A stretch of 64,000 bases of DNA from assembly GCA_964035545.1 (NCBI GenBank), contig OZ037769.1, positions 9,826,633 through 9,890,632 of the forward strand. The letters run 5' to 3'. Numbering within the stretch: position 1 is the stretch's first letter; each line of letters starts with the position of its first letter. A program made the position numbers and the translations under genes. The notes under the pieces were generated by a model that had not been told where the DNA came from, ran no database searches, and saw only the letters and a list, made by a program, of their open reading frames with translations. Source of the stretch: Bugula neritina (lineage: Eukaryota > Animalia > Bryozoa). Below are positions 35,691 through 64,000 of this stretch, one piece after another.

Positions 35691-36027
35691 TGTTTAAAGG
35701 CTTCTGTCCCTTAGGGCAGTGCCTTCTCACATGACCTTGCATCCCGCACTCCCAACAGGTGGGCAGATAGGGGCGGACAGGGTTGTCCCGCGATCGGGGA
35801 GCCCGCCTGTCCGTCTGGTTGCGCTGCAACTCCGACACCGTAGCCTGCAGGTGAGCTGCGTCTGCTCAGGCGATGGAGTTGCCGCTGCCGCCACCTGTGG
35901 GGTTGAAGGTGGGGGTGCCTCTTCTTCCCCTTTGGCCACCTGGCGAGCTGTGTAGCTTGTCCTCTGAGGCTCTTCCACTTGGAAGTAAGCCATCCCCATC
36001 TCCAGCGCTTCTTCTATACTGCTGACC
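35674..36027 (-). pseudogene. gag: Gypsy A gag 3' fragment
   Basis: VSSIEEALEMGMAYFQ aligns to Gypsy B gag VETMEKALRLGNAYFQ. CCHC knuckle follows a frameshift; stop TAA at 35674-35676. Confidence 0.85.
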
Positions 36028-37901: not shown

Positions 37902-38320
37902 TGTAATGGATTTTAGTGGTGCAATTAGTGTTAGCTATTATATTGAAAGGGTCGACTCTATATTGTATGCTATTGTGGAGATCGACTACATCGACCTCCA
38001 GCAACTTGTATCTATGGTCGACAGTGGCACCACTGGTAACAACCAATCAGGACTGACATACTAATTGATAGCAGGTGGAGCTAGCTACTCGTAGTGGAAG
38101 CGCGCTGAGTAGCTAGCCAGGCAGAGCAGCTTGGGACTTCATTTAGAGTAGTTGTGTGTAAATGCTCACTAATTATGTAATCGTTTCACTTCATGTTAGC
38201 AGTAATTAGAACCTCTTGTATCTTGTAAATAATAAACTTATCATAACGTAAATAACCTGGTGTAGTGGCTTTGTTTAAGTTGACTCACACATAATATAGT
38301 GAAGTGTGAAATTCACTACA
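37902..38320 (+). repeat. Gypsy B 5' LTR (about 419 bp)
   Basis: TG...CA with an imperfect 12-bp terminal inverted repeat. The 3' ~300 bp matches 60905-61208. Contains AATAAA. The 5' boundary is inferred from the inverted repeat. Confidence 0.85.
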
Positions 38321-38321
38321 G

Positions 38322-38339
38322 TGGTGGCAGCGGTGGGAT
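38322..38339 (+). promoter_or_regulatory. Primer-binding site, tRNA-Leu
   Basis: TGGTGGCAGCGGTGGGAT one base after the LTR; complement of the tRNA-Leu(AAG)-type 3' end ...ATCCCACCGCTGCCACCA. Confidence 0.9.
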
Positions 38340-38381
38340 CTTACTTAATACAAATGCTCCTAGTCAGGGAGTAGAAAGAAG

Positions 38382-39254
38382 ATGGCCGACAAGGACGACG
38401 TGCCCAGACAGGAACCGGCAGCAGTAGAAGAGGATCACATAGGCGGCCCAGCGCTGCCTATGGACAGGTACCACTTGCAGGCTCCCATCTTCTCAGGGGA
38501 AGAAGATGTGGAGCAATTCATCACTGAGTTTAGTGATGTGGCGGCCATCTGCAGATGGCCGAATAGGGTTACTCTGATCCAGCTGCGGTTATGTCTGACA
38601 GGGCCGGCTAAACCCTATGGGATAAGCCAGAATGTCGGTGACATATTTGAAGCATTACGAGCTCGGTTTGGATTAACCGCTCGAGATGCTTGCGTGCAAC
38701 TCCAGGGACTTGGGAGAAATCCTAAGACCAACCTGCGAGAGCATGCTACGGCAGTCGAACGACTGGCACAAGTCGCCTACGGCGACTTGCCTGCTGATAG
38801 TCGACAGAGCCTAGCACTGGATGCATTCCTCCAGTCTATTAACAACCTCGGCCTGAAACAGCATTTGCTGGTGGCCAAAGTTGAGACTATGGAGAAAGCT
38901 CTAAGGCTTGGGAATGCCTATTTCCAAACCGACAGTGCGAGTCGACCTGGTGCGACAATACGGCAGGTCGGAGCAGACGACGACACGTCGACGTCGCCGG
39001 CGAAGACAGCTGTACATGTCGCCTCGGCAGCAGCAGGCGAATCGACTAGCTTGACCACAAGCTTGGTTCGAGAACTGCTAGCCAAGATCAGGTAACTGCG
39101 CCAGCAGTCGACAGCCGAGCGACCCAGGAGGTCGTCGGTAGCTGTCGACAACAGGCGCCGCCCCATATGCTGGGGTTGTGGTAGTGGTGGGCACTTCATA
39201 CGAAGTTGCCCCCGCGGTAGTGGGAGGCAGTTAAACAGCAATGGCCCACGGTAA
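38382..39254 (+). pseudogene. gag: Gypsy B gag with premature stop at 39093-39095
   Basis: 237-aa capsid-like ORF; the same frame continues to CWGCGSGGHFIRSC and TAA at 39252. Confidence 0.9.
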
Positions 39255-42200
39255 CTTCCGCCGACCGTGGGCCCCAGTTTAACCCCCAAAGGCAGAGGCC
39301 AAGGCCCAAGCCCCGCCGGGTGAGGAGGTCGCCTTCGCCAGAGTGGCAAGCCCCAAGGAGAGTTAGTAGGCCGCAAGGCCCACCCAAACCTCCGGCTTGG
39401 GCACTCAAAAACCGCTTTGAAGGTTTGCTTGATAAGGGAGTGAACGACGAGTAGGAGCACAACAGGGATTTTCCTCGGTTGCCCACACGAGCATCAGTCC
39501 GATAATTCACTCGGCCGCCCGTGTGTGAGCAAGACCGAGATGTAACCTGTTTGCCCACGCGACGTCGACGACCCCCTCGCAACCGAAAAGCACAGGTGCA
39601 TCCCCAACTCCATGCACATGAGGTGTCGCCTCAAGAGACGAACTGCTTAGTGAGCGCTCAGCCATATGGAAGCAGCTATTTCCTCCCCAGCAAACCTGCT
39701 GGCAAAGCTGTCACATTCCTGTTGGATACTGGGTGCACCACAAACCTACTGAGTCGGCGTCTATTCAACACTCTCAGTGCCAGGGACAGGGCTAGCCTAG
39801 AGCCATATGAAGGGGAACACGGCACGTTGGCGGACGGGTCGTGTATTCCTTTTTATGGGGTAATCCAGTTGACTGGTAGAGTCCGTGATCAGACGATCAG
39901 TGAGACCTTCATCTTCAGTCAACTCAAGGAAGACGCCATCTTGGGCATGTCATTTCTGAAGCGACACAGGTGCTACATCAACTTTAGCAAGTCGGCGGTA
40001 GTGATGGCCGGGCGTGAGCTGGCCTGTGTCGACCGATTTGGCCGACCCTTGGTGGGGGGAGTGCAGGTGGTACAGCGTTGCACTGTAACTGGGCGCTCCC
40101 GGGCTACAGTTCGCTGCAGAGTGAACTGTACGGAAATCTCTGAGTTAGGAGTGGTGGATGGTGTACTGGGGGGCGTCCAGCTCGCTAACAGTCTGAATAG
40201 GCTGGACGAGCGGGGGGAGTTCCTAGTCCAGTGCGTAAACCCTTTCACGGAGTCGGTAGAATTGCCGGCTGGGTCTCTAGGGGGGAAGTTCCACTCTGTA
40301 CAGGAAGAGGATGTAAGGCCCACGCTGAAGACGGCGGACAAAGCCCGTGGGGTACCCACTAGAAACGGCAGGGGGCCGGTGCCTGAACACGTAGCGGAGT
40401 TGTACGAGGATGCCTGTGATGGCTGTGAGAGCAAGCGAGAACGCCTGGTGATGGCGCGGCTACTCTCTGAGTACAAAGACGTGTTTAGTTGCGGCGACCA
40501 TGACATGGGTCTGACTAAGACTGTCTGTCATGAGATACCCCTGGCGGCGGGGACGGCGCCCATCCGGCAGCCGACCCGCCGGTTAGGTCCTGAGAAGGAG
40601 AGAGAAGTGAGCCGTCAGGTGCAAGACCTTCTGAACCGGGACCTGATTGAGCCAGGCCATGGGGCCTGAAGTTTTCCAGTCGTCCTAGTTCGGAAAAAGG
40701 ATGGGAGCTGGAGGTTTTGCGTTGATTATCGCAGGCTGAACAGCGTGACCATTCAGGACGCTTACCCTCTTCCTAAGATCGATGAGTCGCTCGATGCCTT
40801 AGCTGGTAGCAAGTTCTTCAGCACGTTGGACTTGCTAAGCGGGTATTTGCAGGTGCCCCTGAGTCCTGAAGCACAGGACAAGGCTGCGTTCATAACGCGG
40901 GATGGGCTCTGGAAATGGAAGGTGTTGCCATTCGGACTTGCGTCCGCACCGGCCACCTTCCAGCGACTCATGGAGCAGGTCCTGAGTGGGCTGCACTGGA
41001 AGACCTTGCTCATTTATCTTGATGATGTCATTGTCATCTCCCCCGACTTCGACACACATGTCAGTCGACTCTGGGAGGTGTTTGGCAGACTTCGAGCTGC
41101 TGGTCTGAAGCTCAAGCCCTCTAAGTGTGCATTACTGCAACGCGAGGTTAAGTACCTGGGCCATGTAGTTGGTCGAGACGGGGTCGCCACCGACCCCGAG
41201 AAGGTGCGGGTTGTGAGGGATTGGGCTGTTCCGGTCGACCTCCCTGAATTGCGGGCATTCCTGGGACTGGTAAGGTACTATCGTCAGTACATGCCAGACT
41301 TCGCCGGAATTGCACAGCCGTTAAATCGGCTGACAGCAAAAGGGGTGCGATGGCAGTGGACACAGGCCGAGCAGAAGGCATTTGACCACCTGAAGGATCG
41401 CCTGGTGGAAGCACCCATCTTGGCGTATCCTGACCCTGCGAAGGAGTACATTTTGGATACTGATGCCAGTAACCATAATGTGGGGGCTGTGCTGTCGCAA
41501 GTCCAAGATGGTCGCGAGGTGGTGGTGGCTTACTATAGCAAAGCCCTGTCGGCGCCTGAGGAGAACTACTGTACAACCAGGAGGAAACTCTTGGCAGTAG
41601 TCAAGGCGGTCAAACACTTTAGACCATATCTATATGGGCGTACATTCCGGCTTCGGACGGACCATGCGTCTTTGATATGGCTGTGTCGACAGGCGGAACC
41701 ATCAAGCCAAGTAGCGCGCTGGCTAGAGATCCTGGCAGAGTTTTCTTATCGGATCGAACATCGACCCGGTAAGAAACACGGTAATGCCGATGGACTCAGC
41801 CGCTGCCAGGCAGATGGGTGTAAGCAATGCCAGAATATGGAGCGCAGGGATGGTGGACCCCCTCGCTCGGACGTTGAAGCGCAGTTGGGGAAAGCGGGTG
41901 TATACAGCTGGGAAGAAGGGCAACTCCTGTCCGAATCTCCTAACGAAGCTGTTAACAACCTTCACGCAAAACGCTCAGGAACGTCAGGGAGCTATGTCGG
42001 CTCCAGGCTACACTACCAGGAGTAATAGCTGACCTAGTCCGAGCCAAGAAGGAGAGACGGCAGCCGAGTGAGGCCGAACAGCGAGTGAAGAGCGCAGAGT
42101 TTAAGTACTTCTGTGACCGCTGGGACTCCCTCCGGTTCAACAGCGATGGGCTGCTAACGATAACGTTGGTAGCCGGCACCAATCGCAGTGAACGAGAGAG

Positions 42201-43576
42201 GGTAGTCTGCCCGTCCGCTCTGAGGCGGGAGTTGATCTGGGACACCCATAGGCAAGCTCACGCGGGAGCTAGCCGGGTGACTAGGTGTCTTCAACTCCAG
42301 TGGTTTTGGCCCGGTATGACCCGGGATGTCCGACTCCGGGTGCGGAAGTGCGATGTATGCCAAGCGAGCAAGCATGGCCGCCCCACCGAGACCGCAGGGA
42401 GGTGTCTCCTCCATGCCGGTCGTCCGTGGCAGGTAGTTGCTGTAGATCTGGTAGGCCCCATGCCCACAACAGCGAGAGGTAAAAACTGGATACTGGTACT
42501 AACTGACCATTTCACGCGGTGGGCTGATGCACTGGCTATTCCAGATGCGTCGGCCCCCTCAGTGGCCAGAGCCTTGGATCAGCAGGTGTTCTGCTATTTC
42601 GGTTTGCCGGAGCAGATACACTCTGATCAAAGCGCCCAGTTTCAGTCGCAACTTATGAGCGATCTCTGTAAAATGTGGGGGGTAAACCAGAGTCGGACGA
42701 CCCCGTATCACCCGTAAGGGAACGGGGTTGTGGAGCGGAACAACCGAATGCTAGGGGACTCACTGAGAAGCCTGCTTATCGGTAAGAGCCAGGAAGAGTG
42801 GGACTTGGTGCTGCCGCAGATCATGCGAGCGTACCATAGTACCCCTCACTCCAGTACACTGGAGACCCCTAATTTTCTCATGCTGGGGAGAGAAACCAGG
42901 GTTCCTGAGCACGTAACCTATCATGTTCCGGTTCCCGAGAGCAACGTCCACGATTACGTGGACAAACTCGTAAAACGCATGGGGACGGCTCACGGGGTGC
43001 TACGTGAGCAGCAATGGCAGGTCAGAAGTGGTGACTCTGACGACCCCCCCCTTATACAAAGTAGGAGACTGGGTCTGGATGACCAGTCATCGCCGGCGAC
43101 GCGGACAGGCAGCCAAGTTGCAGCCGAAGTTCGTGGGTCCTTACTGCGTGATTGAGGTGATGCCAAATCACACCTATAAAGTGGAACGGTCTGGACAAGT
43201 GTCAGTCCAGAACGAGGCACGGCTGAAACCTCACTGGGCAAGTCCTGATGCAGCAGGTCAAGCACCTCCTCTCTTAGAGCCCGCTAGATGCCCTCCTATG
43301 AGGGGGCGAGGCATGGCGTATAGAGAGATTGAGGAGACACTGCAAGATCAGGACGGGGCGGCTGACGCGCCGCCTGACCCGCCCCAGCCACCTCCACCCC
43401 AGGAGGAGGAGGAGGCCGACACACCAGAAGACCTGTCTGAGCCGACCCCACCACCTGTGGAGCCGGTCGACAGGCCCATCGCCCCAGATGAGATGGAAAT
43501 TCCTCAAAATCATGAGGAAGAGGCAGCTGGGGGAGGACCACCCGCACTGGTGGACCTCCCGCCCCCGTACTGGTGA
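39230..43576 (+). pseudogene. pol: Gypsy B pol (PR FLLDTG, RT YLDD, RNase H, integrase HHCC-DDE, Pro-rich tail), interrupted by stops and frameshifts
   Basis: ORFs 39521-40669, 40745-42025, 42085-42717, 42730-43155 and 43004-43576. Confidence 0.96.
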
Positions 43577-43930
43577 TACCACTCGTGGTGGAAGAGTCAC
43601 CAGTCGCAGCAAATTCCCCGATACCGTTGGAACGTAGCCAACGTACCAGGGCGCCACCATCTTATTTGAGAGACTTCTTGTGCGACTTGGTCGACACGTA
43701 CCGTATCTTGTAGCGTGTCGACAGGTGCAAAAGAAGTCTGGGGGGCGAGGTAAAGGAAAGAGCGAAGTCAGCTCGCTAGTGAAGGAGGTATTATGTGATC
43801 ACTTTCACTACGAAGAGCGTTCTTTTCTATTTCAACTGCCAACGTGCACGCGCACACTCGGCAGGCTGGCGTACTACTAGAATAATTGAGTGGGCCTAAG
43901 TGACAACTATAACAATAATTCACTCTTCAC

Positions 43931-43948
43931 TGGTGGCAGCAGTGGGAT
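43931..43948 (+). promoter_or_regulatory. Primer-binding site, tRNA-Leu (Gypsy C)
   Basis: TGGTGGCAGCAGTGGGAT, one mismatch to the Gypsy B PBS, one base after the LTR end CA. Confidence 0.88.
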
Positions 43949-44004
43949 CTTTTCTACTAACACTAGACGAACTCCAACTTTAAAGCTAAAACCTAAAACT
44001 AAAG

Positions 44005-44957
44005 ATGGCCGAGTCAGGAGATGTACCCCCTACAACCGAGAAACTAGCTACCACAGCTGAAGTCAATGAACAATTGGTGCAACTACTGCGAGCACAAATG
44101 ATTGGCATGAATCAGCCCAAAAAACAGCCCATATCAGCTCCAACTTACGACGGCACTACTGACGTAGATACATTTTTGCAACAATTTGATATCATAGCAG
44201 CTCACAACAACTGGGAATCAGACGAGAGTGGGCTTCGACTGAAATTAGCATTGCGAGGGGAAGCTGCTAAATGTGTAATGTCGGATCGTGCAGCGGAGAT
44301 CAGACAGCAACTAATACAAAAGTATGGCTTGAGAGAGAGAGTCAAGCCTACAATATGCTCAAGAAACTGAGTTATAAACCAGGAGAGGATTTAAACGTTT
44401 TTATTAACCAGCTACAGAAGGTATTAGCCACTGCCCATCCTAAGCTAAGAGGAGACGAGTTGGAGGCAATGGCTGTAAAGGAACTGCTAGCACAGATACC
44501 TTCCAATCACCCTGCTATGTGGGCCCTACGCGTGAAACCTCCTACCACTGTACAAGATATTAAGGAGATCTACGATACATTTACCAACGATAATACTAAT
44601 ATTAACTACATGAGCAGTGAAACCGTGGACTCTACCCCCAACTTGGCCCAGACCTTACTAGAAGGCTTTCAAAAACAACAGCAACAGCAGCAAGAAGTAC
44701 TGCAGGAGGTGCTCACCCTGGTACGCGGGGTACGACAGCCCCCCACACCAGTTGCAACTGCCCGAGAGGAAGCGCTACCCCCAGTGCAGGAGAGAAGGAC
44801 CTACTCAACCACTTACCAATGTCCCCGCAGAAATCTTGCACCCAGAGCAGAAACTAGACAATGCTGGAGTTGTCAGCAAATAGGACATCTTGCCAGAAAC
44901 TGCCCTTACCCTCCAACCCCTATACACAAGACGGGAAATGGTCCAGCCCGGCGTTAG
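44005..44957 (+). pseudogene. gag: Gypsy C gag, frameshifted in a GA dinucleotide run (about 44331-44341)
   Basis: ORFs 44005-44370 and 44271-44957; CWSCQQIGHLARNC knuckle. Confidence 0.9.
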
Positions 44958-46298
44958 AAGCCCCATACAACGCCGGGCTTGAACAACTTATTCCTTTGGG
45001 CGCTAGGCAAGCTGGTATAGACGCCACAGCTTACTACGTCACTGGACGAATCAGTTATACTGATGTCATTCTGTTGCTGGACAGCGGATGTTCTAAATCC
45101 ATTATTCCTACTCAACTATACCAGCAACTGAATCGGGATTGTGCTACCTCACTGAAAAAAGTCCCTGGAGAGGGTGTCCTAGCTGACGGCAGCCGACTAC
45201 CTATAGAAGGCAGCACCACTATTACTCTCCGCATAGGAAGCAAAACTTACACCCAACCTTTCTTAGTAGCTAATTTACAGCAACATATTTTGTTGGGATT
45301 AGATTTTTTTATTCAACATGGCTGTCACTTAGATTTCAAACGTGCACGTTTTACACACTCTGGTGAGAGTCAAAACTGTTGTGATGCGTATGGTGGACCA
45401 ATACGTGTTAATGTTCATTTAGCTCGTCATGTAGAGATACCCCCACTCTCAGAGATGATGATTCCGGCCCACATTACCAGACACTGGACCTCTCAAGTCG
45501 CTTACATAAAAGCAAGTAGCCCTGACAAGAATTTACTCATTGCAGCTTCCATATATCAGCCCAGAGATAATCTCGTTTGGGTTAGGGCCTGCAATATTTC
45601 CTCCGATACACTAGAACTTCCACAAGGGAAGACAATAGCCACTTGTAGTCAAGCCCAAGTGATTGATGATGTTGGTACTAACACCCCTGACTACAGGTCA
45701 CTGCCCCCACAATTGGAGCAGCTTCTCCAGAAAACTAACTTAGACCAAAGAGATACGCAGAAGGCCAGACTCCTCCTACAAAGACACCAGGATATATTCA
45801 GCATGGATAAGTATGACCTGGGACGCACAAATCTTACTCGGCACCAGATCCCACTCATTGATAGCGCTAGGCCAATAAAGCAGCGCCCTTATAGACATGG
45901 CCCCATCCACGAAGAGGAAATAGAACGACAAGTGAAGGAGTTACAGACACAAGGTCTTATCTCTGAAGGAAAGAGTGCGTGGAGTTCCCCCGTAGTCCTA
46001 GTGCAGAAAAGAGACGGGAGCTGGCGATTCTGCGTTGACTATCGTAAGCTGAATGAAGTAACCTCCAAAGATGCCTTCCCACTACCACGTATCGACGACA
46101 GCCTAGATACACTTGGAAGGAGTACTGTATTTAGTACTCTAGATTTAACTAGCGGCTATTGGCAGGTTGAGCTAGATGCAGATGCCCGGGAGAAAGCAGC
46201 GTTTGTGACTCGATCTGGTCTCTACGAATGGGAGGTCTTGCCCTTTGGCCTCACTTCTGCACCCTCCACATTTGAAAGATTAATGGAGACTGCCCTTA

Positions 46299-47054
46299 CA
46301 CAGGATAGTTAAGGGCAACCTTTTAGCTGCAACTACCTTGCTGAGGTTTGCATTGTAATCATATAAAAATTCAGTACCAGTAAAATAAAATCTCACCTAA
46401 TTGTGCTAGAGTCAAAATTTAAAAACTATACTGTAGATCTTCTTTTTCTCCAGGGTAAGTTTTTTGGAAATTTCAATTTTCATTTTTTTTGCAAAGTTAT
46501 AGACAAAAAACTGCCCAATTTTGGCCAATTTTGCCTGAAAAGCTGACTTTTCAGTACCAGTAAAATATCTCAGCAGCGAAGCATGATATCTGAATAAAAA
46601 TTGCACTGCTGGAATCCTGAGATATTTCTCCAGGGTAAGTTTTTTTCTTTTTCCAATAACTCTTCTAGATTGCCCACAAATTGGTGATTTATACACTGAA
46701 AATGCCATGTTTTTTCATAGTAAATTGGCAGCGCGCAGTGCTTCACGCTTCAATGAGCACGTAGGGATGAGAAGATATTGGCGCGTACATGCTAATTATA
46801 GGCTTGCTAGTCGACAGGCTACAATGAATAGCTTGCTTGGTACTTTGTTTATGTAGCGCCTATAATGGAATGTTGATAGATAACACAGCCCTAATGAAGG
46901 TTGCTGCTTATTGGTTGTAGTTTGATCTTAGGCTAAACAATTGCAAGTAGGCAACACGCATGCCACCCGCAGAGTAGTATTATTCAAGAACCTAAACTAC
47001 ATTTTGAGAGAAATTTATGATATTCTTAGTGAGGATGCCCTTAACTATCCTGTG
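46299..47054. mobile_element. 756-bp non-autonomous DNA transposon (MITE) with TA target duplication
   Basis: 19-bp perfect TIR CACAGGATAGTTAAGGGCA / TGCCCTTAACTATCCTGTG. TA at 46297-46298 and 47055-47056. Removing it restores the RT frame. Contains an internal ~180-bp imperfect direct repeat. Confidence 0.95.
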
Positions 47055-48313
47055 TAGAGGTCTCCATTGGAAAACCCTATTAATTTACCTAAATGACATC
47101 ATCGTCTTTGCTCCCGATGTGGACACCCATATTCACCGGTTAGAGGAGGTATTTAACCGACTTCGAGCAGCCAAGCTAAAATTGAAGCCTGAGAAATGTA
47201 CCTTATTTGCCGAAAGAGTAAAGTATCTAGGACATATCGTCAGTAGTCAAGGCGTGGAAACAGATGAAGAAAAAATACAGGCGATTAAGAACTGGCCCCG
47301 CCCTCAACACAAGAAAGATGTCAGGTCTTTTATGGGAACCTGTAGTTACTATCGCAGATTTATTAAAAATTTCTCTGAGATTAGTAGACCGCTTAGCCAA
47401 ATTAGTTCCAAGAATGCCCAATTTAACTGGACTCCCGAGTGTCAGCAGGCTTTTGACCTGTTGAGTAATCACTTAACTACAGCGCCTATCTTGGCATACC
47501 CTGATTATACCCTACCCTTTATTTTGGACACTGATGCCAGTGCTGTTGGTATTGGAGGGGTCCTTTCACAAGTGCAGGATGGTCAGGAACGCGTCATCTC
47601 TTATTACTCGAAAATGATGTCGTCAGAAGAACGGAACTATTGCGCGACCAGACAGGAACTGCTAGCTATAGTTAAAACCATTACACATTTTAAACCTCAA
47701 CTGTATGGCAAACCTTTTACAGTACGTACAGATCACGCCTCGCTCACTTGGCTACTGCGCACTCCACATCCTCAAGGACAACTAGCTAGATGGCTAGAGA
47801 CACTAGCTCCCTATGATTTCCATATTGAACATCGTAGAGGCAAAGTACATAGCAATGTAGACGGACTTAGCAGACAATTCTGAAAAGATTGCCGCCAATG
47901 TAACCAGATGACAAAACCTGCCTCACAAGACGCCCCTCTCCCACTCTCCATGTATAATTCGGAGAAGTCCATTCCCTGCCAGCAGATTATGCAACCCCTT
48001 CCTATCCCACAACAAGTCCCTATTCTGGCCCACTTAGCACAACCCTCTCCTACACTACACCCCACTCCACAAGTCCTACGTACTCCAAAGTCTGTGACCA
48101 GACAAGAAAGCTTTATAAAGAACCCGACGACCCAGTCCATACCGTCTCTTCTCAGTTTGAAAACTACCTGGCACGGTCACATGACAAATACCTTCTTGAG
48201 CCCAACTCCACAGCCCCACCTTGCTCGTAGTTGGAGTAATGTGATAAATAATTCCCCTCCGGCCACATTCCCTACGCTCAGCCCCGCTTCCACACAACAA
48301 ATCCCAAGGTCTC

Positions 48314-49167
48314 TGTAATGTTACGAAATAGGATGTTTACAGATATTATAACTTGTAGTACAATCACACACAATCACAATGTCATTAACCTCAAATTAGC
48401 CTAACCACTAGCTGCTAGTAGTCTACCTAATGCTTCTTTAATCACTACCCCAAAACAGTAGCTACGCATGTAGAATGATTCATAGTCAGCAGCTATGCTT
48501 GCATCAGCTGTGATGTCACACGATGCTTGTTTACTTCAGCCCACTTCTTGAAACAGTAAGATCCTACCCCCAAAATAGTAAATTGTAAAATCATACCTCT
48601 TACAACACAATAATGTTTATCAAATGGATTAGTATATAAGACAAAACCATTTTTATTAGTTGCAATATTGTTAGAGTCATGCTGTCAGTTTGGACAGCAT
48701 CAAATTTATGTAAGACTACTAAAGAGTAGCATTATTTGAAAGACTGTGCAAAGCCACAGCATTAACATAACAGTAGACTAGGAGAGAGAGAAAAGAGGTA
48801 ATGAACATCTATTTACAATTATATATCGTTATTACATTTTTATGTTATAAAGTTTTTAATAATATGGGCTGTAGTTGCATGTTATGTTGAATCATTATTT
48901 CATGCTGCTATCTACAATTTATGATATACATTGCTAGTGCTTTTACATACATACTTATTATATTACGTACATTTTGTTTGCCTTATGCCTTATGTTGTAT
49001 CATTATTATTTTAGTTTTTACGGTCAGTGTTTGGTCAGCATTTGGTCAGTATTTGGTGACTCAAATAAACTCTGATCACGTCTAAAACCCTCCCTATTCC
49101 TAGTCAGGCTGTATAAGCTAGAGTGTCACTCTAAAGCAAGGGTCATAGCAAAGAGTGTCATTCTATA
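48314..49167 (+). repeat. Element D 5' LTR (854 bp)
   Basis: Direct repeat of 52864-53716. Differences seen: one C in a C-run and the penultimate base. Confidence 0.96.
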
Positions 49168-49732
49168 GTAAAAACTCTTTCTCAAGTCCGGGAGTAACAG
49201 CTCCATCTCAAGTCCAACAAAAGAAACCGACAAACATAAGACGACCACAAAGAGAACCTCACTTCTACCCACCTCAACTATATAAACATTACTAACATTT
49301 ATCAGGATATTATTCTCAACTACATACAAAGGTGACCTGGAATCAGCAGATTGGTGAGAGATTACCATATAACCCTCACCTTCACATATAAGTGACATAA
49401 TTATAAAGGAAATAGTTGAATGGAAAGTTATTAGAATAATTAGGCTTGCATGCAGATTTATTTTTTGGAAGTATTGTAATTATAGAAACTCCATTTGATA
49501 AACATTGTGTCAAAGCCCCATAAAATTAATTAGGATCTCCCTGTTTCTGATTGGGCAGTTGGGTACAATCCCTGTGCTGGCATCAGCTGTTTGTTTGCAT
49601 TAGCTGTTGGCTAGTGATAAATCTTGACAAACTAGTCCAAACTAGTTTTCCTACTGAATTTAGGTTATAAAATAACTGTAGTAAGTAAATGCATGCTTTT
49701 CACTAACTGTCTCTATTACTAACACAGCAACA

Positions 49733-52477
49733 ATGAATGATGACACATCCACATGTAGTAATAGCATTAGGATTAGCAGCCGAGTCAAAACCCTATCTAC
49801 AAAGGGAAAACAATTAGAGGTAGAAAAAAGGTTTAAATCTGTCACAAGTGCAATTAAAAGGTTTAGAAGTAGGCATGCAGCAACAGACAATCATGATAAT
49901 GAATTTTGGGATGACATACAACGAATTATGTTAGATGCAGATGCTGACTTAGCAATTCTAAAGTCATTAGCTCCAAGTCATCCTCACCTTGAGGACTTAA
50001 CACAGCAAATTAACAGTATACATGAACAATGTAAGGGCGAAAGCCATTCAGTGCATGCTAGCAGTAAACACACATCAAAAGCAAGCTCATTCATCTCAGC
50101 CAAGACAAAATTGCAAGTTGCACAATTAGAAATTGAAATGGAAGCCATGCAAAGACAGGCTGAGCTAGAAAGGCAGTTAGCCAATGTCCAGTTGGAACTA
50201 AGTAAAAGTAAGCTGTTAGAAAAACAGAAACAACTGAGAATAAGGCAGGAAATAATAGAGGAACATGATATAGACGTTAGAGATGAGCTAGCAGAGTATT
50301 TAGATAATTGCCAACCAATAGTGAATCAGGAAAGCAATAGTGAAGTTATTTTTAGTAGGCCAGTAGAAGTTTTGCAAAGCAACCAACCACAGCAAATAGG
50401 CAGCATGCAAAACAATGAATCACAGCATTCTACATGCAGTAATGAATACCTGGCCACATGCTTAACAAAAGCAATACAAGCCAACAATGTGCCGAAGCCA
50501 CCAATATTTAGGGGAAATCCCTTAGACTTTATAGATTGGGAATATGCCATAGAGAGTTACATCAAGGATAAAATGATAGGTGATGATGGTAAAATGTATG
50601 TCTTGAAACAGCATGTTGATGGACCTGCTAGAGAAGCAATTAGTGGCCTATGCAGTTTACATACACTAGCAGCATACCAAAAGGCCAGAATAATTTTGAA
50701 AGAAAGATTTGGGTCAGAATTCACAGTTGCTAATGAATTTCGAAAGAAAATTAATGCTTGGCCCAAAATGAAACCACATGAACATAAGCAGATACAATCA
50801 TTTTCTGACTTCCTCACACATTGCGAAATAGCAGCAAAAGATATTAAAGAGTTGGAAATTTTAAATGATTGCGAAAAGAATCTTGAGCTCATGTCCAGGC
50901 TGCCAGATAACATGATAAATAGATGGAAGCGGGAGGTAACCACACATAGGAAAAATCACAGGAGTTACCCCAGTTTTAGTCAGTTTGTAAAGTTTGTACA
51001 AACAGAAGCAGAAATCCTAAATGATCCAATCACTTCATCTTTGTCAGGTTCAAGGGTCATAGACTTACATAAGCCTCAAAAGCACAACAACAAGGGCATT
51101 AGCTTTGCTACTAGCATAGAAAAGCATTCTCCTGATGTTGAAAGTACAGAAAATCACAAAGCTAAACTATGCCTCTACTGCAATTACAGTAATCATAGCA
51201 CACATGAGTGTAGAAAACTGGCTAGCATACCAGTTGATCAAAAACAAAAGTTCATTACTGGTAAAAGATTATGCTTTGGTTGCTTGAGAATAGGTCACAT
51301 GACAAAAGAATGCAGAAATAGAGCTACTTGTAAAATATGCCAAAAAAGGCATCCTACTGTAACACATAGAAGCAATCAGCCAGCTACACAAGCTAACAAC
51401 AGCAATACCAAAGTAGAAACAGTGCAGGTAAATGGAGTAGCAAGTAGCAACAACCCAGAGCAAGTAACAGCTAACAGCAACAATACAGTGGCTAAAACAA
51501 ATGGCTTGTGCTCAATGGTTGTGCCTATATACCTAGCAACTGTAGATAACCCTAATGAGGAAGTGCTAACTTATGCACTCTTAGATAGCATGTCAGATAC
51601 CACATTTGTAACTAACCAAGTTGTTAGTAAGCTACAAACAGCTACAAGCAAACCAGTTTCTCTTAAACTAACAACAATGACAGCTGACAACTTGGAAATG
51701 AAGTGTAAGGTGTACAATAACTTGACCATTAGAGGACTTAACATGCATGAGCAGATACAAGTAGGAAAGACTTACAGTAGGGACAGCATTCCAATTAACA
51801 AGCAGCACATACCCACACCAGAAATTGCCAATAGATGGCCACACCTTAAATGCATTGCAGGTGAAATACCTCAAAGTTTAGATATAGAAATAGGAATGCT
51901 TATAGGGTATGACAACTCCAGAGCTTTAGTGCCACTTGAAACTAAAATAGGCCCTGCAATCAATGATCCCTTTGCTCTGAGAACACCTCTAGGATGGTGT
52001 ATTGTAGGCAATAGTGGTAAGCATGAAACAAACTCATTTCCCACATGCAATAGTGCTATGGCTCATGAGCAGAATTTGAGTTCAGATATCTTGAATGTCC
52101 TACAGCAAGATTATACTGACACAAAGTACATTGGTACTCATAAAATGTCACAGGAAGATGCCAAGTTTTTAGATAACATGCGCAACAATATTAAACAAAG
52201 AGAAGACAATTATTACAGCATGCCACTGCCGTTTAAAAATGCTAAGCCACAATTACCAAACAATAGACAATTAGCTGTGCACAGACTTGATACCCTCAAA
52301 ACTAAAATGCTTAAAGACCAGGAATATGGAACAGACTACGTGGCATTCATGACAGACATAACAAACAATGGCGATGCAGAATTGGTACCTACAACTTGTG
52401 AGGCAAGCAACCATCAGTGGTACATTCCCCACTTTGGCGTGTATCACCCCAAAAAGAAAAAGATTAGTAAAGCATAA
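49733..52477 (+). CDS. BEL/Pao Gag-protease with RT N-terminus (914 aa), truncated by internal deletion
   Basis: FRGNPLDFIDW gag motif; triple Cys/His knuckle CLYC..H..C, CFGC..H..C, CKIC..H..H; protease YALLDSMSD; YSMPLPFK and WYIPHFGVYHPKK just before the break. Confidence 0.93.
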   Translation: MNDDTSTCSNSIRISSRVKTLSTKGKQLEVEKRFKSVTSAIKRFRSRHAATDNHDNEFWDDIQRIMLDADADLAILKSLAPSHPHLEDLTQQINSIHEQCKGESHSVHASSKHTSKASSFISAKTKLQVAQLEIEMEAMQRQAELERQLANVQLELSKSKLLEKQKQLRIRQEIIEEHDIDVRDELAEYLDNCQPIVNQESNSEVIFSRPVEVLQSNQPQQIGSMQNNESQHSTCSNEYLATCLTKAIQANNVPKPPIFRGNPLDFIDWEYAIESYIKDKMIGDDGKMYVLKQHVDGPAREAISGLCSLHTLAAYQKARIILKERFGSEFTVANEFRKKINAWPKMKPHEHKQIQSFSDFLTHCEIAAKDIKELEILNDCEKNLELMSRLPDNMINRWKREVTTHRKNHRSYPSFSQFVKFVQTEAEILNDPITSSLSGSRVIDLHKPQKHNNKGISFATSIEKHSPDVESTENHKAKLCLYCNYSNHSTHECRKLASIPVDQKQKFITGKRLCFGCLRIGHMTKECRNRATCKICQKRHPTVTHRSNQPATQANNSNTKVETVQVNGVASSNNPEQVTANSNNTVAKTNGLCSMVVPIYLATVDNPNEEVLTYALLDSMSDTTFVTNQVVSKLQTATSKPVSLKLTTMTADNLEMKCKVYNNLTIRGLNMHEQIQVGKTYSRDSIPINKQHIPTPEIANRWPHLKCIAGEIPQSLDIEIGMLIGYDNSRALVPLETKIGPAINDPFALRTPLGWCIVGNSGKHETNSFPTCNSAMAHEQNLSSDILNVLQQDYTDTKYIGTHKMSQEDAKFLDNMRNNIKQREDNYYSMPLPFKNAKPQLPNNRQLAVHRLDTLKTKMLKDQEYGTDYVAFMTDITNNGDAELVPTTCEASNHQWYIPHFGVYHPKKKKISKA

Positions 52478-52479
52478 AG

Positions 52480-52757
52480 GTAGCATAACTCCCAGACTCA
52501 CAATTATTGACTTGACAGATGCTAAACATCTTATAATGCAGTGGGTACAAAAAGAGTCATTTTTAGATGAATATTACAGGCTAAGTAAAGACAATTGTGT
52601 AAGTAAAGATAGAAACACATAAAACTGAGATGACTTAATTCGTAAGGTAAAAGTACAACTAGCAACTACAGAGTTGAACAGTAAAGATGTGAAACTAGCT
52701 CCACCCACATACTTAGATAGGCCTATCCATAAATTAATTTACCTATTTACCCCATAA
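52480..52757 (+). pseudogene. Residual BEL pol fragments (RH-IN connection; integrase C-terminus)
   Basis: LTIIDLTDAKHLIMQWVQKESFLDEY, then DDLIRKVKVQLA...YLDRPIHKLIYLFTP* at 52629-52757. Confidence 0.8.
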
Positions 52758-52863
52758 CCTTTGCATGCATACCTATATTAGTATTTTAGCTTAATATTTT
52801 AAATGCATAATAATATAATTGTTAATTCCCTCTAAGTGAATAGAGAGAAATTAAAGGGGGGAG

Positions 52864-53716
52864 TGTAATGTTACGAAATAGGATGTTTACAGATATTATA
52901 ACTTGTAGTACAATCACACACAATCACAATGTCATTAACCTCAAATTAGCCTAACCACTAGCTGCTAGTAGTCTACCTAATGCTTCTTTAATCACTACCC
53001 CAAAACAGTAGCTACGCATGTAGAATGATTCATAGTCAGCAGCTATGCTTGCATCAGCTGTGATGTCACACGATGCTTGTTTACTTCAGCCCACTTCTTG
53101 AAACAGTAAGATCCTACCCCAAAATAGTAAATTGTAAAATCATACCTCTTACAACACAATAATGTTTATCAAATGGATTAGTATATAAGACAAAACCATT
53201 TTTATTAGTTGCAATATTGTTAGAGTCATGCTGTCAGTTTGGACAGCATCAAATTTATGTAAGACTACTAAAGAGTAGCATTATTTGAAAGACTGTGCAA
53301 AGCCACAGCATTAACATAACAGTAGACTAGGAGAGAGAGAAAAGAGGTAATGAACATCTATTTACAATTATATATCGTTATTACATTTTTATGTTATAAA
53401 GTTTTTAATAATATGGGCTGTAGTTGCATGTTATGTTGAATCATTATTTCATGCTGCTATCTACAATTTATGATATACATTGCTAGTGCTTTTACATACA
53501 TACTTATTATATTACGTACATTTTGTTTGCCTTATGCCTTATGTTGTATCATTATTATTTTAGTTTTTACGGTCAGTGTTTGGTCAGCATTTGGTCAGTA
53601 TTTGGTGACTCAAATAAACTCTGATCACGTCTAAAACCCTCCCTATTCCTAGTCAGGCTGTATAAGCTAGAGTGTCACTCTAAAGCAAGGGTCATAGCAA
53701 AGAGTGTCATTCTAGA
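52864..53716 (+). repeat. Element D 3' LTR (853 bp)
   Basis: Follows the purine tract and precedes the TSD GTCTC. Confidence 0.96.
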
Positions 53717-55905
53717 GTCTCATTTAGCTTACCCCTCACACATGACCCAACAGGTCCATACTACCTCTCAACTTAGTAAACTCCAGTGGGAGGATCCAAA
53801 CTTATCAGTACTCATGAAGACTATCCAAGACAATGAGCCTTTTGATTTAAAGGTACAGAGCAGAGAGACAGTATTACTGTGGCGTGCCAAAGAATATTTA
53901 ATATTAGACCTGGCCGGCGAACTGAAGATTAGCGGACCTGGAGGAAGGAGACGATCTGTTTGTCCTTAGTCCATTTGGCAGAGTGTCATCATGAGCCTCC
54001 ACAAAGAAGCTCATTTTGCTGCAAATAAGGTACTAGCTGCCCTCCGACTTAAGTGGTATTGGCCAGGTATGACCAGTCAGGTTAGGCGGCTGGTGGCACA
54101 GTGTAGAGACTGCCAACAAGCGAAAGGTGATAACACTGTGAAGAGGCGAGCAGACAACCATTTGCATGCAGGACGTCCGTGGCAAATGGTGGCCATTGAT
54201 CTGTGTGGACCACTACCGGAGACAGAAGACCGAAATACCATGATACTTGTGCTGACTGATCATTTTACCAGATGGAGCGACGCTATTCCACTGCCTGATG
54301 GGAAAGCTACTACTGTGGCCAGAGCTCTGGATGAGAAAGTGTTTGCAGTTTTTGGCATTCCCGAAGTTATCCACTCAGATCAAGACTCCCAATTCCAATC
54401 TGAGCTTTTCCAAGCATGCTGTAACCTCTGGGGATGCGATAAGTCTCAAACTTCACCCTACCGCCCCCAAGGGAACTCAGTGGTGGAGCGACTGAACCGA
54501 ACCGTGGGAAACTCCTTAAGAGCCCTACTAATAGGTCATGAACATCGGCCGTGGGACCGGCTCTTGCCACAAATTATGCGCACTCTACGCGCCACCCCAC
54601 ATCGCATCACGGGCGAAACTGCCAACTACATGATGCTGGGAAGAGACGCGCGACTGCCCCCTGACATTCACCAACCGGTTACTCAGCCAGAATACACAGA
54701 AGTTGAATATGTCACCGATTTACAAGAGAGGATGCAAGTGGCAGGTCAGATGCTAAGAGACCGTCAAAACAAACTCCCCAGGGCAGAGGAAGATGTCGAA
54801 CCCTTATTTAAAGTTGGAGACAAGGTCTGGCTCAAATCATTTTATAAAGGACGAAGCAGAGGGACTAAGTTACAGCTCAAATATGTCGGACCGTATACCA
54901 TCACTAAAACTCTGCCCTTCCAGACCTATGAGATGGAACGACAAGGACAAAAGTCAGTGCAACATGAGGTAGGGATATAGCTAGTAGTTGGAGATGTGGT
55001 GTCAGAGAAAGCGTCCCCGTCACAGAAGGAAGGAAATAGCGACCCACCAGCAACAGAGACAGTAGACACTCAACTTGAAGAGGAGTATTTTGATGCTGAT
55101 GACTTTTCCTTAATTGTGCCCCCAGCGTTATTGATGCCGGACTCCGAACCAGTGCACCCCCCACCTCCCGTAGTGGAAGGCGATGCCTCCCATATTACTC
55201 CAGATTCCCCTATAGCCCAGACACCACCCCGTCGGTCTAGTAGAAGCCGAGCTATGCCTCCTAGATACGATGATTATGTCATTAATGAAGCACATCCTGA
55301 CTGCAGACTACGAGGACGTAGTCCAATCAAGGGAGAGGGTGATGAAGAGGAAGCTACAGCTGTTAACAACATATTGTCTATACCTCACATCGAGTCAAAA
55401 TAAAGAAATCGAGGAGGTAACTCCCAAATAGGAAGATATGTAAAATCAAGATCGATATGTAAATGTAGGAGTTGTACTACTATGTCCCATTAAAAGAAAA
55501 CTTGCCTTCTCATGATAAAAAGTCAAGAAAAATAAGAACCGCTGCTCGAACAAGAGTTGTTGGAGTGGTTTTGAGACTGACAGATATAATTGTTGTTTTT
55601 GGCGCTATCGCCTTCTTTCGGATTTCTAAGATTGTTTTATGTTGATTTGTGATATTATTTCAGCTATCGTGAAAAGACAGAACGTGCTCGAGTTAGTTGA
55701 TAAACGTAAGAGGCCGAAGCCGTGATTTATTACCACAATATATATACACGAAAATACTAAAACTATTACAATAAGTGATACAATTAATTATTAAGATTAT
55801 GACAAAAAATAGTAAAATAATAAAATAACAAATTAGAAATAAATGTTTACATGAACACCGAACATCTCCCACAGAATAGAAAAAAGCTATTTAGATATGA
55901 TTGTT

Positions 55906-59901: not shown

Positions 59902-60812
59902 TGTTTTATGTTGATTTGTGATATTATTTCAGCTATCGTGAAAAGACAGAACGTGCTCGAGTTAGTTGATAAACGTAAGAGGCCGAAGCCGTGATTTATT
60001 ACCACAATATATATACACGAAAATACTAAAACTATTACAATAAGTGATACAATTAATTATTAAGATTATGACAAAAAATAGTAAAATAATAAAATAACAA
60101 ATTAGAAATAAATGTTTACATGAACACCGAACAAAGATTATTATATTTTGCAATTAGCCCTCAGCCGTTATAATATTATACTTACTAAAGGAAAATTCTA
60201 CATTTTTTATTACTGTTAGTTTTATCGTTCTGTCTTTTTGACTGAATCAACTGCGCAGTTAATTTTTGGTGTTACAATAATATATTAATATAGTGAATAT
60301 TATTCAATTTGTTCATATTCTATTGTATATTATTATTAACTTCTCCCTTTGTTTGTGATTGCATAAATCTGTGTACAAAACGTAATCAATTCTAGTATCT
60401 CAATTGTTAGTAGAAAGTAAGTCGTATATTTGTTTCAAAGTTATTAAAAAGTAATTCTTGTGTTGATACCCATCTGATCTTAAAATAGTAATAGTTTTAG
60501 ATAACATAAAAATCTGACATTTACATTCGCATAACCACAGCTGAACAGTAGTAGACCATAATATTTTTAGTCTCACTGAACACTTTCCTTTATCATACTC
60601 CGACATAATAGTTATAGTAGATATTAATATAGAGATTTGAACTATACTACTCAGTTCCACTACCCGATCCAACACCGCGGCTACAAACAAACATCTTAAC
60701 CTTGGCTTTGCTTTGCGCTACTCTACATCAGCACGTCATACATTACATCTAAAAGAACATTAGAATAATTGAGTGGGCCTAAGTGACAACTATAACAATA
60801 ATTGACTCTTCA

Positions 60813-61208
60813 GTAGAAGACGCTAGTGTTATGCTTATGGTTATGGAGGTAATTAGTATCGACAGAGATGACTCGGGTCGGCTGTTATCCGACAGTATCT
60901 CACAGTCGACAGTGGCACCACTAATGCTAGCCAATCAGGACTGACATACTAATTGATAGCAGGTGGAGCTAGCTACTCGTAGTGGAAGCGCACTGAGTAG
61001 CTAGCCGGGCAGAGCAGCTTGGGACTTCATTTAGAGTAGTTGTGTGTAAATGCTCACTTATTATGTAATCGTTTCAATTCATGTTAGCAGTAATTAGAAC
61101 CTCTTGTATCTTGTAAATAATAAACTTATCATAACGTAAATAACCTGGTGTAGTGGCTTTGTTTAAGTTGACCCACACATAATATAGTGAATTGCGAAAT
61201 TCACTACA
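60813..61208 (+). repeat. B-family LTR (5'-truncated by the Gypsy C insertion) with a divergent U3
   Basis: 60905-61208 aligns to 38017-38320, whereas 60813-60904 is only weakly similar to 37902-38016. Ends ACTACA with no PBS. Confidence 0.9.
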
Positions 61209-61337
61209 ATATGTCACGCAAAATGGAAAACTAGGTTGTTACTGAAATGTTTTTCGCCACTTCTTCAGCCCTCCTGATTAATACCGTATAACTGATACTC
61301 AACAACATAAAACAGTTTTTGTCAAAAAGTTTCCTAT

Positions 61338-61690
61338 TGTAGGAATTCGTGCAATTACTGTGCGTGAGTTATCTACTTGCGTATACTTAGTTGGCTATTC
61401 TACTAGCAATTACTAGGGTAGCTGTCGAGTAATTATATTTATTATCCACAATAAAACATAAAGCAAACATTACATCAAATTATCCTATACATCAGTCAAC
61501 TACTAACACATGTTTCTACTTCAAGCCTCCGCTTACAACAACGTGATCAATTGTCAATAGCCCGGGAAGTGTCACGTGAGTCGGAAGCATATCTTCCGGT
61601 GCTGCTAATTGGTTGCTACATAAGGGCCTTAGTATTCCCAGAACGGAGAGAGGGCGATTCCAGTATTTGTACTTTGCATGACTCACTACA
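61338..61690 (-). repeat. Gypsy F 3' LTR (about 353 bp)
   Basis: TGTAG...CTACA termini just after the PPT; AATAAA on the minus strand at about 61438-61443. The partner LTR is outside the window. Confidence 0.75.
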
Positions 61691-61989
61691 CCGCCCCCCC
61701 CCAGCAGAAAGCCCTACTTTCTGATAACACAATACAAAAAAAACACATAAAGAAAAACAATACAATAATCCAAAAAGAAAAACATACATAAGTAAACACA
61801 CAAAAAGGAAGAAGAGAAATAGTTGAGTACGACAACATTTATATACAGAAGTAAACAGGGTGATCGAACACACACATCTAGTCAGCTATAAAGAGAGAGG
61901 GTGCTTACCAGCACGCGGGCCAATGTCGGAGCACTCGTCACTTTCCAGACGAAATACAGCTCAACGAAAGGTGCCTACCCCAGGCATAC

Positions 61990-63047
61990 TCATTGGGTGG
62001 ACTCTGACTCTTGTAGCGAGCGTGCTCTGTGTCGAGCCTGTCGGGCACGTAGCCGCCTCTTCAGTCGCCCCACTGAGTCCTTCAGCTGGTATAGACCTGT
62101 CGTCGTATCCAGCAGGTCAGGGGCCAGTTGCGTAAACTCGGCTTGTAGTTTTATAAGCCGCTCTTCTACATTAGCCAGTCGGCTAGGCCTTGGTGGGGTT
62201 GTAGTAGTCTCTGTTATTGGGGGTATTGTTGTTCCTTCTAATTCGAGGGTGTTGCTAGGGTTGACGGGGGTAGGAGACGGGCCCTGAACCATAGGGGACT
62301 TATGGTGGGCGGATAACAGCAGTACTTGGAACCCTGACGCTAGTGCGGCCAGGGTGATGGCCTTCTTGATGACTGGCTTGATGGTGTCCATGTACTGGGG
62401 GAAACTGTCCTCATCAACAATATGGTTCTCTCCGGCGAAGCAGCTCAACTTATGGACTATCACAGGATACGGGTATACATCGTGGAACCCGCATGGGCAG
62501 AAATGAAGTAGAAAATGGGCGTCTACATGCAGACGCAGGGAGCGGTGTGACGGGCACTCCTCGAAGCAGACCTGGCAGGTCCGGTGGGGTCCACTGGGTT
62601 CCCAGGCTTCCTCAATTCTCCTTTCCGTCGTGGGTGACACCCAGCGGTGTCGTCGACGAAGCACCACGGGTAAGCCATTCTCCATTACAGGTTCTTCTTC
62701 CATAGGTAGAGAGGTTGGCTGGTCCCGTGACCGGGAGGTGGTCACTCGAGTGTGATCTGAAAGAGTAACAGTGTTAAAGATTATACACTGAGGTACCGTC
62801 GGCGTGTACAGCCTGACCGGTACTCTGTTCAGTTACACTCGTGATATTCAGGCTAATGAATAGTTGATGGAGAACACACTCGCTATGGCAGATTATTTAA
62901 AATCAAAGTCGACGTGTATTCCCACCACTGTTTATCATTATCGAATCTCCAGCTCGCTAGCTAGTGTAGCTAAAGCTGACTGATGCAGTCTAGTTATCGT
63001 ACCAAAAACATAATTAACTCACCCTTCGATCCAGAATAGTAAGACAT
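61990..63047 (-). CDS. Predicted two-exon accessory gene of Gypsy F: join(63047-63023, 62756-61990), 263-aa C2H2/C2HC zinc-finger plus coiled-coil protein
   Basis: AAAATG start; donor G|GTGAGT at 63022; acceptor TTACTCTTTCAG| at 62757. The phase-1 join is in frame with the 251-codon ORF. Contains C-x2-C-x12-H-x3-H and C-x-C-x12-H-x3-C. Confidence 0.75.
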
Positions 63048-63070
63048 TTTGGAATGAGAGTGGTAAATGA

Positions 63071-64000
63071 TTACTGTTTAGTGGCACGTCTACTCTTGAC
63101 TGCATCAACGTAGGAAAAGACCGGACAGCGTGGTTGTGAAACGTGACTAGGGCTTTTCACTTCCCGCGGATGAATCTCGTGTGAGATTCCGCCAAGGCAA
63201 AAGTTGAGATTTCCGTGGTGTTCACAACTCCCACGTCTCTTTGCCTGTTTTCCCACGCGAGACCTCGCTAGACTCTTGTAACTGCCGCTTGTACCGCGGT
63301 CACGTACACAGTCTCTGAGACACGCTGGGGGTTGCCTAGTGTGTGGTCCTGGAGGCGTCGTCACTGTGGGAGGCGGTGTGCTCACCCGTGGATTGTTATG
63401 TCTCACGGGTGGTTTTTCCAGCCTGTTTGTGACGGTTGTTCCTACGTTGGTATCTCCTTGCGGAGCCCCTCCCACGGGGGTTTTTTGCACTTCCGGACCC
63501 GTTTTTGGTTCCGGAAGTGGTGGTGATGGCAGGCTTGACGTTGGGGGTGGTGGGCGCACTTTCAAGGACGGAAGTGGCCTTTCTCGCCTCGCCAAGTCTT
63601 CCTGAGGTGTCATGGAGGTGTTTCCGGCCAGGACGACAGTCTCCGCCTGCCAAGACCTTCTCGCACAATGCGTCTGCCGCCCGCTTCACCAGGGAGACGG
63701 CTATGCTTGTTGGTCTGGCAGACTTCGCACCGTCTCACTCTGCGCCGGATATCCCGCTCCATGTTGGGCCAATACCACCGGAGTTGTAGCTTGGTGACCA
63801 CCCCTTGGACTCCTCCGTGAGTCTTCTCGTGGGTGTCTTGTATCAACTCCCGGCGGATGGCAGCTGGGCAGACGATCCTTTTCCTGGCTGGTTGTCTGTT
63901 GTTGGCGGCCAAGGTCATGGTCAGCAGACCATCTGGCCCGACCCGCAGAGAGTTCCAACGTTGACAGTACAGCCGTAACTCGGCGCATCCCTGTCGCCGT
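63071..64000 (-). pseudogene. Gypsy F integrase remnant: HHCC region fused to the Pro-rich C-tail, catalytic core missing
   Basis: RSWQAETVVLAG (compare RPWQVVAVDLVG) runs directly into MTPQED...PPPPT...TRQPPACLRD. Confidence 0.8.

Follow-up and report, generated by a model that had tools for sequence, protein, structure and literature searches.

Complex retroviruses are characterized by regulatory accessory genes. To our knowledge, such genes have rarely been documented in animal Gypsy elements, in which CERV is the tested case that we found. The question raised by the present locus is whether a frame of 263 codons at the 3' end of a Gypsy-type element in the bryozoan Bugula neritina is a gene of this kind, and what its product might do. 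The window (the whole stretch analysed, 64,000 nt of contig OZ037769.1) is repeat-rich, with satellites to ~31 kb followed by nested LTR elements, and the frame forms part of the 3' end of an element that is on the minus strand and is cut by the window end. A first-pass annotation, made from the letters of the DNA, had described a non-env accessory gene that lies behind pol and starts with an ATG exon of its own. The analysis upheld such a gene as real and found it to be constrained, and it is very probable that a spliced accessory gene lies between the integrase tail and the polypurine tract (PPT) and 3' LTR. The satellites of the window consist of a 20-nt-unit array at 1-14536 (734 copies) and a 128-nt-unit array at 14569-30986, the orientation of which flips at 27763/27764.

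The end of the element is organized as follows:

61338..61690, minus strand: 3' LTR of 353 nt, TGTAG...CTACA, with AATAAA at 61443 (sequence; depth in run X1)
61691..61702, minus strand: polypurine tract, G-rich (sequence)
61990..62756, minus strand: exon 2, encoding the finger domain, a Pro/Thr linker, the coiled coil and the basic tail (133 homologues; conservation by region)
62014..62184, minus strand: predicted coiled coil ending Arg-rich (helix 192-253 in the full model; Leu heptads; column identity 0.77)
62305..62679, minus strand: folded domain of 125 aa (AlphaFold2 pLDDT 93.3, pTM 0.86)
62757..63022, minus strand: GT-AG intron of 266 nt (exact joint in one X1 contig; stops in all frames)
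63023..63047, minus strand: exon 1 of 25 nt, with the start codon (sequence and joint in X1)
63048..63070, minus strand: spacer of 23 nt with two TCATT initiator-like motifs (63070, 63057), a candidate internal start (motif scan)
63071..63685, minus strand: integrase C-terminal tail, Pro-rich and then with a conserved end (47% identity to the P0211 tail; H2C2 and tail in a single frame in P0208/P0210)
63700..63867, minus strand: integrase H2C2 zinc-binding domain, the frame of which runs past the window end (PF17921, E 2.5e-16)

The boundaries first assigned to exon 1 (63047-63023), the intron (63022-62757), exon 2 (62756-61990) and the fingers (62577 to 62440) all check, and the joined exons encode 263 aa without a stop. 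The upstream integrase-tail stop, at 63073-63071, lies 23 nt 5' of the ATG, which has an A at -3. The intron has a GTGAGT donor, a pyrimidine-rich CAG acceptor and a TTTAAC motif near 62778, and its three frames hold 6, 7 and 7 stops. In a motif scan of 61338-64000, GTGAGT occurs only twice, at this donor and in the first bases of the LTR. The GC content is 40-41% in the intron and the 3' untranslated part and 55% in exon 2. The LTR and the sequence upstream of exon 1 have no long motif in common, only three 8-mers. An out-of-frame ATG at 63105 (minus strand) opens a short frame that crosses exon 1 and stops at the donor; this ATG could damp translation from longer messages.

Positions 60000-64000 were compared with a public run, X1, which is likely DNA and perhaps the window's own source, hence not independent. 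Seven joints were listed, six of them inside the element. One of these, 62756>63023, skips 266 nt, which is exactly the predicted intron, and has GT..AG ends (CT..AC on the plus strand). It is carried by one contig at depth 843, with a short side of 29 nt, one shared letter and a likeness of 85, in a comparison where joints with a likeness <95 or a side <30 nt are less reliable. Of all deletions of 60-600 nt that could arise in the element, only 0.4% would have GT..AG ends, and a set of six random joints would contain this one with a probability of ~5e-6. The remaining five joints of the element are non-canonical, and one of them (87 nt) fits a 29-residue gap in the related protein P0208, which indicates that genomic deletions are visible in the run. 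Because of its non-canonical GT..AC ends, a second joint at 62751>63010 (depth 120) was disregarded.

Depth in X1 is flat over the intron and the exons and two- to threefold higher over the LTR, and the longest record spans 59 kb, which suggests that X1 is DNA. In this likely case, the joint would correspond to intron-less genomic copies made from spliced RNA, some 5-8% of the depth; if X1 is RNA, it would be the spliced message. Either reading supports splicing. The depth of the intron bins is 10,300-16,700, versus 843 for the joint. Most copies keep the intron, but the claim that it must be retained through retrotransposition is too strong: if X1 is DNA, a minority of copies have lost it.

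The homologues bear on the same joint. In the 34 close homologues that reach the acceptor, the residues at this point are Ser-Asp (27), Leu-Asp (4) or Ser-Gly (2), and differ in one protein, so that 33/34 are AG-compatible. The exception is P0015, the sequence of which ceases to match its relatives precisely at the acceptor; it may represent a copy without the intron. Upstream of the acceptor, homologue copies shift frame. To judge from its translation, P0002 starts at a GTG aligned with the donor, 88 codons (~265 nt) before the acceptor. P0210 and P0262 read exon-1 DNA in another frame, with six of seven residues the same, and back-translation would place the sole change at the third position of the predicted exon-1 frame. 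In four of the 34 close homologues, the part of exon 2 that precedes the conserved Trp contains no Met. These four need an upstream exon, and a start solely at an internal Met was rejected for them, but may apply to the other 30. The intron proposed from the letters alone was thus borne out by the exact 62756>63023 joint, by the acceptor residues and by these four proteins. Because distant members of the family have long in-frame N-termini, the intron evidence is limited to the close homologues.

The element itself carries the mark of LTR retrotransposons, a PPT followed by an LTR with TG...CA ends, and X1 depth is 39,500-48,200 in the LTR versus 9,400-19,900 in most inner bins. The Ty3/Gypsy order protease-RT-RNase H-integrase is found in a sister element at 39.5-43.6 kb. 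In the present copy, integrase is the last part of pol; the window does not extend to its RT, gag, primer site, 5' LTR or target-site duplication. Its H2C2 frame is 51-57% identical to the sister integrases in the window, with a match that stops after ~115 residues, and no catalytic core (rve) was matched by Pfam after H2C2 in this copy. In an alignment of 206 columns, the tail shares 47% identity with the stretch of P0211 that follows the SH3 domain. A frame break separates the H2C2 and tail frames near 63680. With this break and no catalytic core, the element is defective, though the accessory frame is open. The Gypsy context and the integrase tail of the first-pass annotation are thus correct, the latter being a true C-terminal tail; the missing catalytic core and the non-autonomous branch had escaped it.

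This branch includes P0208 (716 aa) and P0210 (722 aa), two single frames with a protease region, H2C2 and the tail, which match the sister-element protease and integrase frames at 52-56%. P0208 is 93% identical to the H2C2 frame and 74% identical to the tail of this copy. P0208, P0209 and P0210, three of the four matches of their homologue search, have no match to the sister RT/RNase H frame, and P0209 has lost the H2C2 domain as well. P0208 and P0210 are 59% identical and share the same losses, with an open frame in both; the non-autonomous branches are therefore old enough to have diverged by 40%. The integrase tails of P0208, P0209, P0211 and this copy share a common end point, and the frame of P0210 continues into exon-1 DNA. 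The first-pass annotation had asked whether homologues always lie between integrase and the PPT; a position behind integrase is seen in the present copy and, for exon 1, in P0210/P0262. The complete sister element (38-44 kb, plus strand), which its protease and integrase identities place in the same clade, ends shortly after the shared tail motif and then has a PPT, without the accessory gene. The sister at 32-36 kb is uninformative about the presence of the gene, because satellite cuts it after its tail. P0211, with its intact-type integrase end, and the accessory protein P0024 both come from a 4,280-nt contig, a match with a chance probability of ~0.085 and hence no more than a hint that intact elements carry the gene. 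The two sister elements (32239-35710, minus strand; 38008-43750, plus strand) are decayed and 72% alike. Both have a long beta-rich region with no Pfam name between protease and RT; the non-autonomous P0208-P0210 have retained this region as well.

The accessory frame has relatives well beyond this copy. A total of 133 close homologues were found among 1,451 candidates, with identities of 49-90% in the 120 listed; in 46 of these 120, at least 85% of exon 2 is covered in one frame, at 49-90% identity. Among the same 120 matches, the eight zinc ligands are conserved at 728 of the 770 positions that could be aligned. An alignment of 34 rows gave column identities of 0.73 for the fingers and 0.77 for the coil, against 0.36 for the linker (p 1e-5 by permutation over columns, which are not independent of the tree), and 30 indels fall in the linker versus 7 in the fingers. 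In a neutral control, 7/300 frames stay open and 66% of the ligands are kept at 70% identity, to be read with a protein set of called open frames only, which inflates apparent intactness. This copy differs from the majority of the run at five exon-2 positions, among 40 differences listed (145 more lie beyond these); four of the five are non-synonymous, which suggests that the copy itself is drifting or decaying.

A wider homologue search gave 87 representatives, with identity down to ~26%, and another distant search gave 54 homologues, mostly from one distant subfamily. In a domain tree of 59 rows, made up of the window protein and of those left from 113 usable proteins after thinning at 80% identity, the window protein belongs to a supported clade of 25 rows, next to other deep groups; Watersipora rows have long branches and are of unsure placement. 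Named homologues come from two bryozoans, B. neritina (KAF6037488.1) and Watersipora subatra (XP_067940964.1, XP_067944745.1), and all are without a named function. The layout of XP_067940964.1 is two finger pairs plus a coil. Homologue-bearing DNA was sought in metagenome contigs (77 and 190 pattern matches) and in viral contigs (100 and 31), with none confirmed. Judged on its sequences, the accessory gene family is conserved and its product belongs to no named family. P0130, P0200 and P0174 have the double-finger domain in two copies followed by a coil at the C terminus; isoforms are annotated for those from Watersipora, which may be products of cellular genes, domesticated or ancestral.

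As the first-pass annotation had suggested, the product was modelled with AlphaFold: the finger region forms one confident 125-aa domain (model built with 70 sequences), the structural matches of which are weak. The domain opens with helices and a C2H2 finger, which a strand of five residues links to the C-x-C-x12-H-x3/5-C finger; a further strand and three helices follow. In the full model, a single helix of ~60 residues forms the end; the last 30 residues have a pI of 12, and in 29 proteins the Arg-rich tail has 5-8 basic residues per 16. This basic tail is weaker in distant members. The window protein matched no Pfam family. Among 70 family members, zf-C2H2_4 was matched in 19 and zf-C2H2 in 9 (best E 1e-4, weak), out of 21 families matched overall; no env family was found among the Pfam matches of the window protein or of these 70. 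The best 19-residue hydropathy window is 1.58, only 2/34 rows exceed 1.6, and the stretch falls inside the folded domain. An env identity, F-type or gB-type, was rejected, with no transmembrane helix and no env family match, in agreement with the earlier statement that the product is not env-like.

Finger 1 follows the classical C2H2 pattern, C-x2-C-x12-H-x3-H with a beta-beta-alpha fold, and Leu occupies the classical +4 position in 62/62 close and 65/66 distant members. The family profile matches the C2H2 fingers of SALL3/4 and HIC2 (E 4.5e-6 to 1e-3). The best structural matches are DNA-bound tandem finger arrays, those of Kaiso (5vmu), SALL4 (7y3k) and ZNF524 (7ysf), with Z of 4.1, 3.7 and 3.7. 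They share with the domain two fingers in tandem, of which finger 1 is standard here, but the likeness extends over only 51-59 residues at rmsd 3.0-4.0; the Kaiso match (rmsd 3.5, 59 residues) covers the fingers only, and its Z, the best for tandem finger geometry, is a weak match. In contrast to the arrays, finger 2 of the domain is C-x-C...H-C and both fingers are set within a larger helical domain. No chain reached Z >=5 in a structural search of 48,161 chains, from which novelty of the fold does not follow. Foldseek with the full and domain models gave no match at E <0.001, and feature (atlas) searches gave hypothetical, C2H2 or RING leads, all <=0.90.

The second finger separates the subfamilies. 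In DNA-reading fingers, the reading positions include Asp at +2 and Arg/Lys at +6. Finger 2 has Asp at +2 in 56 and Arg/Lys at +6 in 53 of the 66 distant members, while in the close subfamily its helix starts Pro-Tyr-Pro (60, 61 and 61 of 62). With a finger 2 that resembles a DNA reader in the 66 distant members but carries Pro-Tyr-Pro in the 62 close ones, the subfamilies may have different targets. In the close subfamily, finger 1 has Leu at +6 and the inter-finger linker is five residues long and hydrophobic; the standard linker and polar base-reading residues of a Kruppel-type DNA-binding array were not found there.

What could such a protein do for its element? Tentatively, and at somewhat less than even odds, the product would act in the nucleus, where it would bind DNA and activate its own element or protect it from silencing, by analogy with Tas of foamy viruses. 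A short message would start just behind the pol stop, at the candidate internal promoter, lose the 266-nt intron and end in the 3' LTR. The protein would pair through its coiled coil, be carried into the nucleus by its basic stretches and bind the element's own LTR or internal promoter, where it would raise transcription or block silencing, like Tas. Any copy with matching sites would profit from a factor of this kind, so that branches without RT, RNase H and integrase core would still gain, which would explain its retention. The C2H2 profile matches, the DNA-bound array matches, the finger-2 residues of distant members and the pI-12 end speak for this reading. Against it are the weak structural matches, the absence of a long motif common to the LTR and the sequence upstream of exon 1, and the Pro-Tyr-Pro, Leu at +6 and five-residue linker, which are unlike standard arrays. 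A similar arrangement is described for foamy virus Tas/Bet: 3'-end accessory genes, an internal promoter, a spliced message and a nuclear regulator of LTR and promoter (PMC13220597, PMC4929722). Tas acts on both the LTR and the internal promoter (PMC13220597). However, Tas/Bet belong to a vertebrate retrovirus with env, whereas the promoter and activity of the present gene are putative. No relationship to the Tas sequence family was detected, there being no retroviral accessory family among the 21 Pfam families and no viral fold at E <0.001.

The chief rival, less probable than a Tas-like role, is a factor resembling Rev or CERV, the fingers or Arg-rich helix of which would bind unspliced genomic RNA for export or for intron-retention feedback. 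Its attraction lies in the consensus-type sense intron that is kept in most copies (10,300-16,700 vs 843); the Arg-rich tail and a finger 2 atypical for DNA reading point the same way, although the tail is weaker in distant members. CERV of the C. elegans element Cer1 is a precedent: it comes from a spliced accessory message of a Ty3/Gypsy-type element, is a nuclear protein with a Cys finger and a leucine zipper, and is needed for genomic RNA export (PMC10309623). Its layout is dissimilar, with 517 aa, five exons that overlap gag, and H, M and G domains (PMC10309623), whereas the present gene lies wholly behind pol and encodes, in two exons, 263 aa with a C2H2 and C2HC pair.

Other roles are improbable to different degrees. 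It is unlikely that the protein is a cofactor of integration or packaging, which would anchor the integration complex or the particle on chromatin or at the nuclei of germline or stem cells. A longer integrase tail does accompany the accessory gene (P0208, P0209, P0211 and this copy, versus the 38-44 kb sister), and P0208 and P0210 keep H2C2 and tail; but the conserved end of the tail may be promoter DNA, which P0210 reads in another frame, and P0209 is without the H2C2 domain. Finger-plus-coil layouts also occur in ubiquitin-ligase-like adaptors, and the domain feature search led to RING/IBR clusters (0.82-0.88, where scores <0.9 are leads only). A counter-defence adaptor, which would act like a ubiquitin ligase or as a decoy to remove or jam a host silencing factor, is likewise unlikely: the ligand spacing and the model read as two tandem fingers rather than a cross-brace RING, and no RING family is among the 21 Pfam families matched in 70 members. 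Least likely of all is that the gene was captured from a host and is a passenger of no use to the element. Genes of the family with several isoforms are annotated in Watersipora, one of them encoding two finger pairs and a C-terminal coil, but these models are possibly element copies or domesticated themselves. In addition, deeply split subfamilies retain ligands, frame and coil, and the exon-1 region is kept in lineages that have lost most of pol.

Whatever the role, the unnamed accessory gene family is real and occupies a known kind of slot; the intron is well supported and the function is a proposal. In Oikopleura, the third gene of Tor3b/4b is an env downstream of pol; it has a separate start within pol or shortly after it, and an internal promoter behind pol (PMC4402516). 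However, the Tor product is a membrane glycoprotein, and its internal-promoter messages are unspliced (PMC4402516). Bdelloid LTR elements, also from a spiralian animal, have a non-env ORF3 between pol and the 3' LTR, but the ORF3s described are of env-like, GDSL esterase, DEDDy exonuclease or transmembrane types (PMC5408684); the main text of that paper contains neither 'zinc' nor 'intron'. In plants, Grande gene23 and Retand TRP28 are extra genes between pol and the 3' LTR; gene23 has its own promoter, and the plant ORFs are nuclear or predicted to be DNA-binding and occur in non-autonomous clusters as well (PMC7264820, PMC11963269). Unlike the present gene, they are antisense, plant-only and of unrelated domains (PMC7264820, PMC11963269). 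A further precedent is given in PMC11952523. Searches of the open literature gave no account of a C2H2/coiled-coil gene behind pol in animal Gypsy elements, and neither 'zinc finger' nor 'splic' occurs in the main text of a metazoan env survey that includes bryozoans (PMC13524379); repeat databases may hold an unnamed annotation.

Here, an unnamed, confidently folded double-finger domain sits in the accessory slot, together with a precise intron. Its survival in branches without most of pol would mean that the gene matters more to them than their own enzymes, and its retention bears on the persistence of non-autonomous LTR elements. More speculatively, and rather doubtfully at present, this bryozoan Gypsy lineage might be a complex retroelement with its own spliced regulator behind pol, built on an unnamed double-finger domain that hosts also use in cellular genes, in which long-lived, parasitic branches without RT, RNase H and integrase core keep the regulator to switch on or outcompete their helpers.

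Elsewhere in the window, at 48314-53718 (plus strand), lies an LTR element with 856-nt repeats that are 99.8% identical and one open frame of 930 aa, the stop of which is ~390 nt before the PPT. From its motifs it is presumably BEL/Pao-like, and it seems to have neither RT nor integrase, which would make it a second young non-autonomous type.
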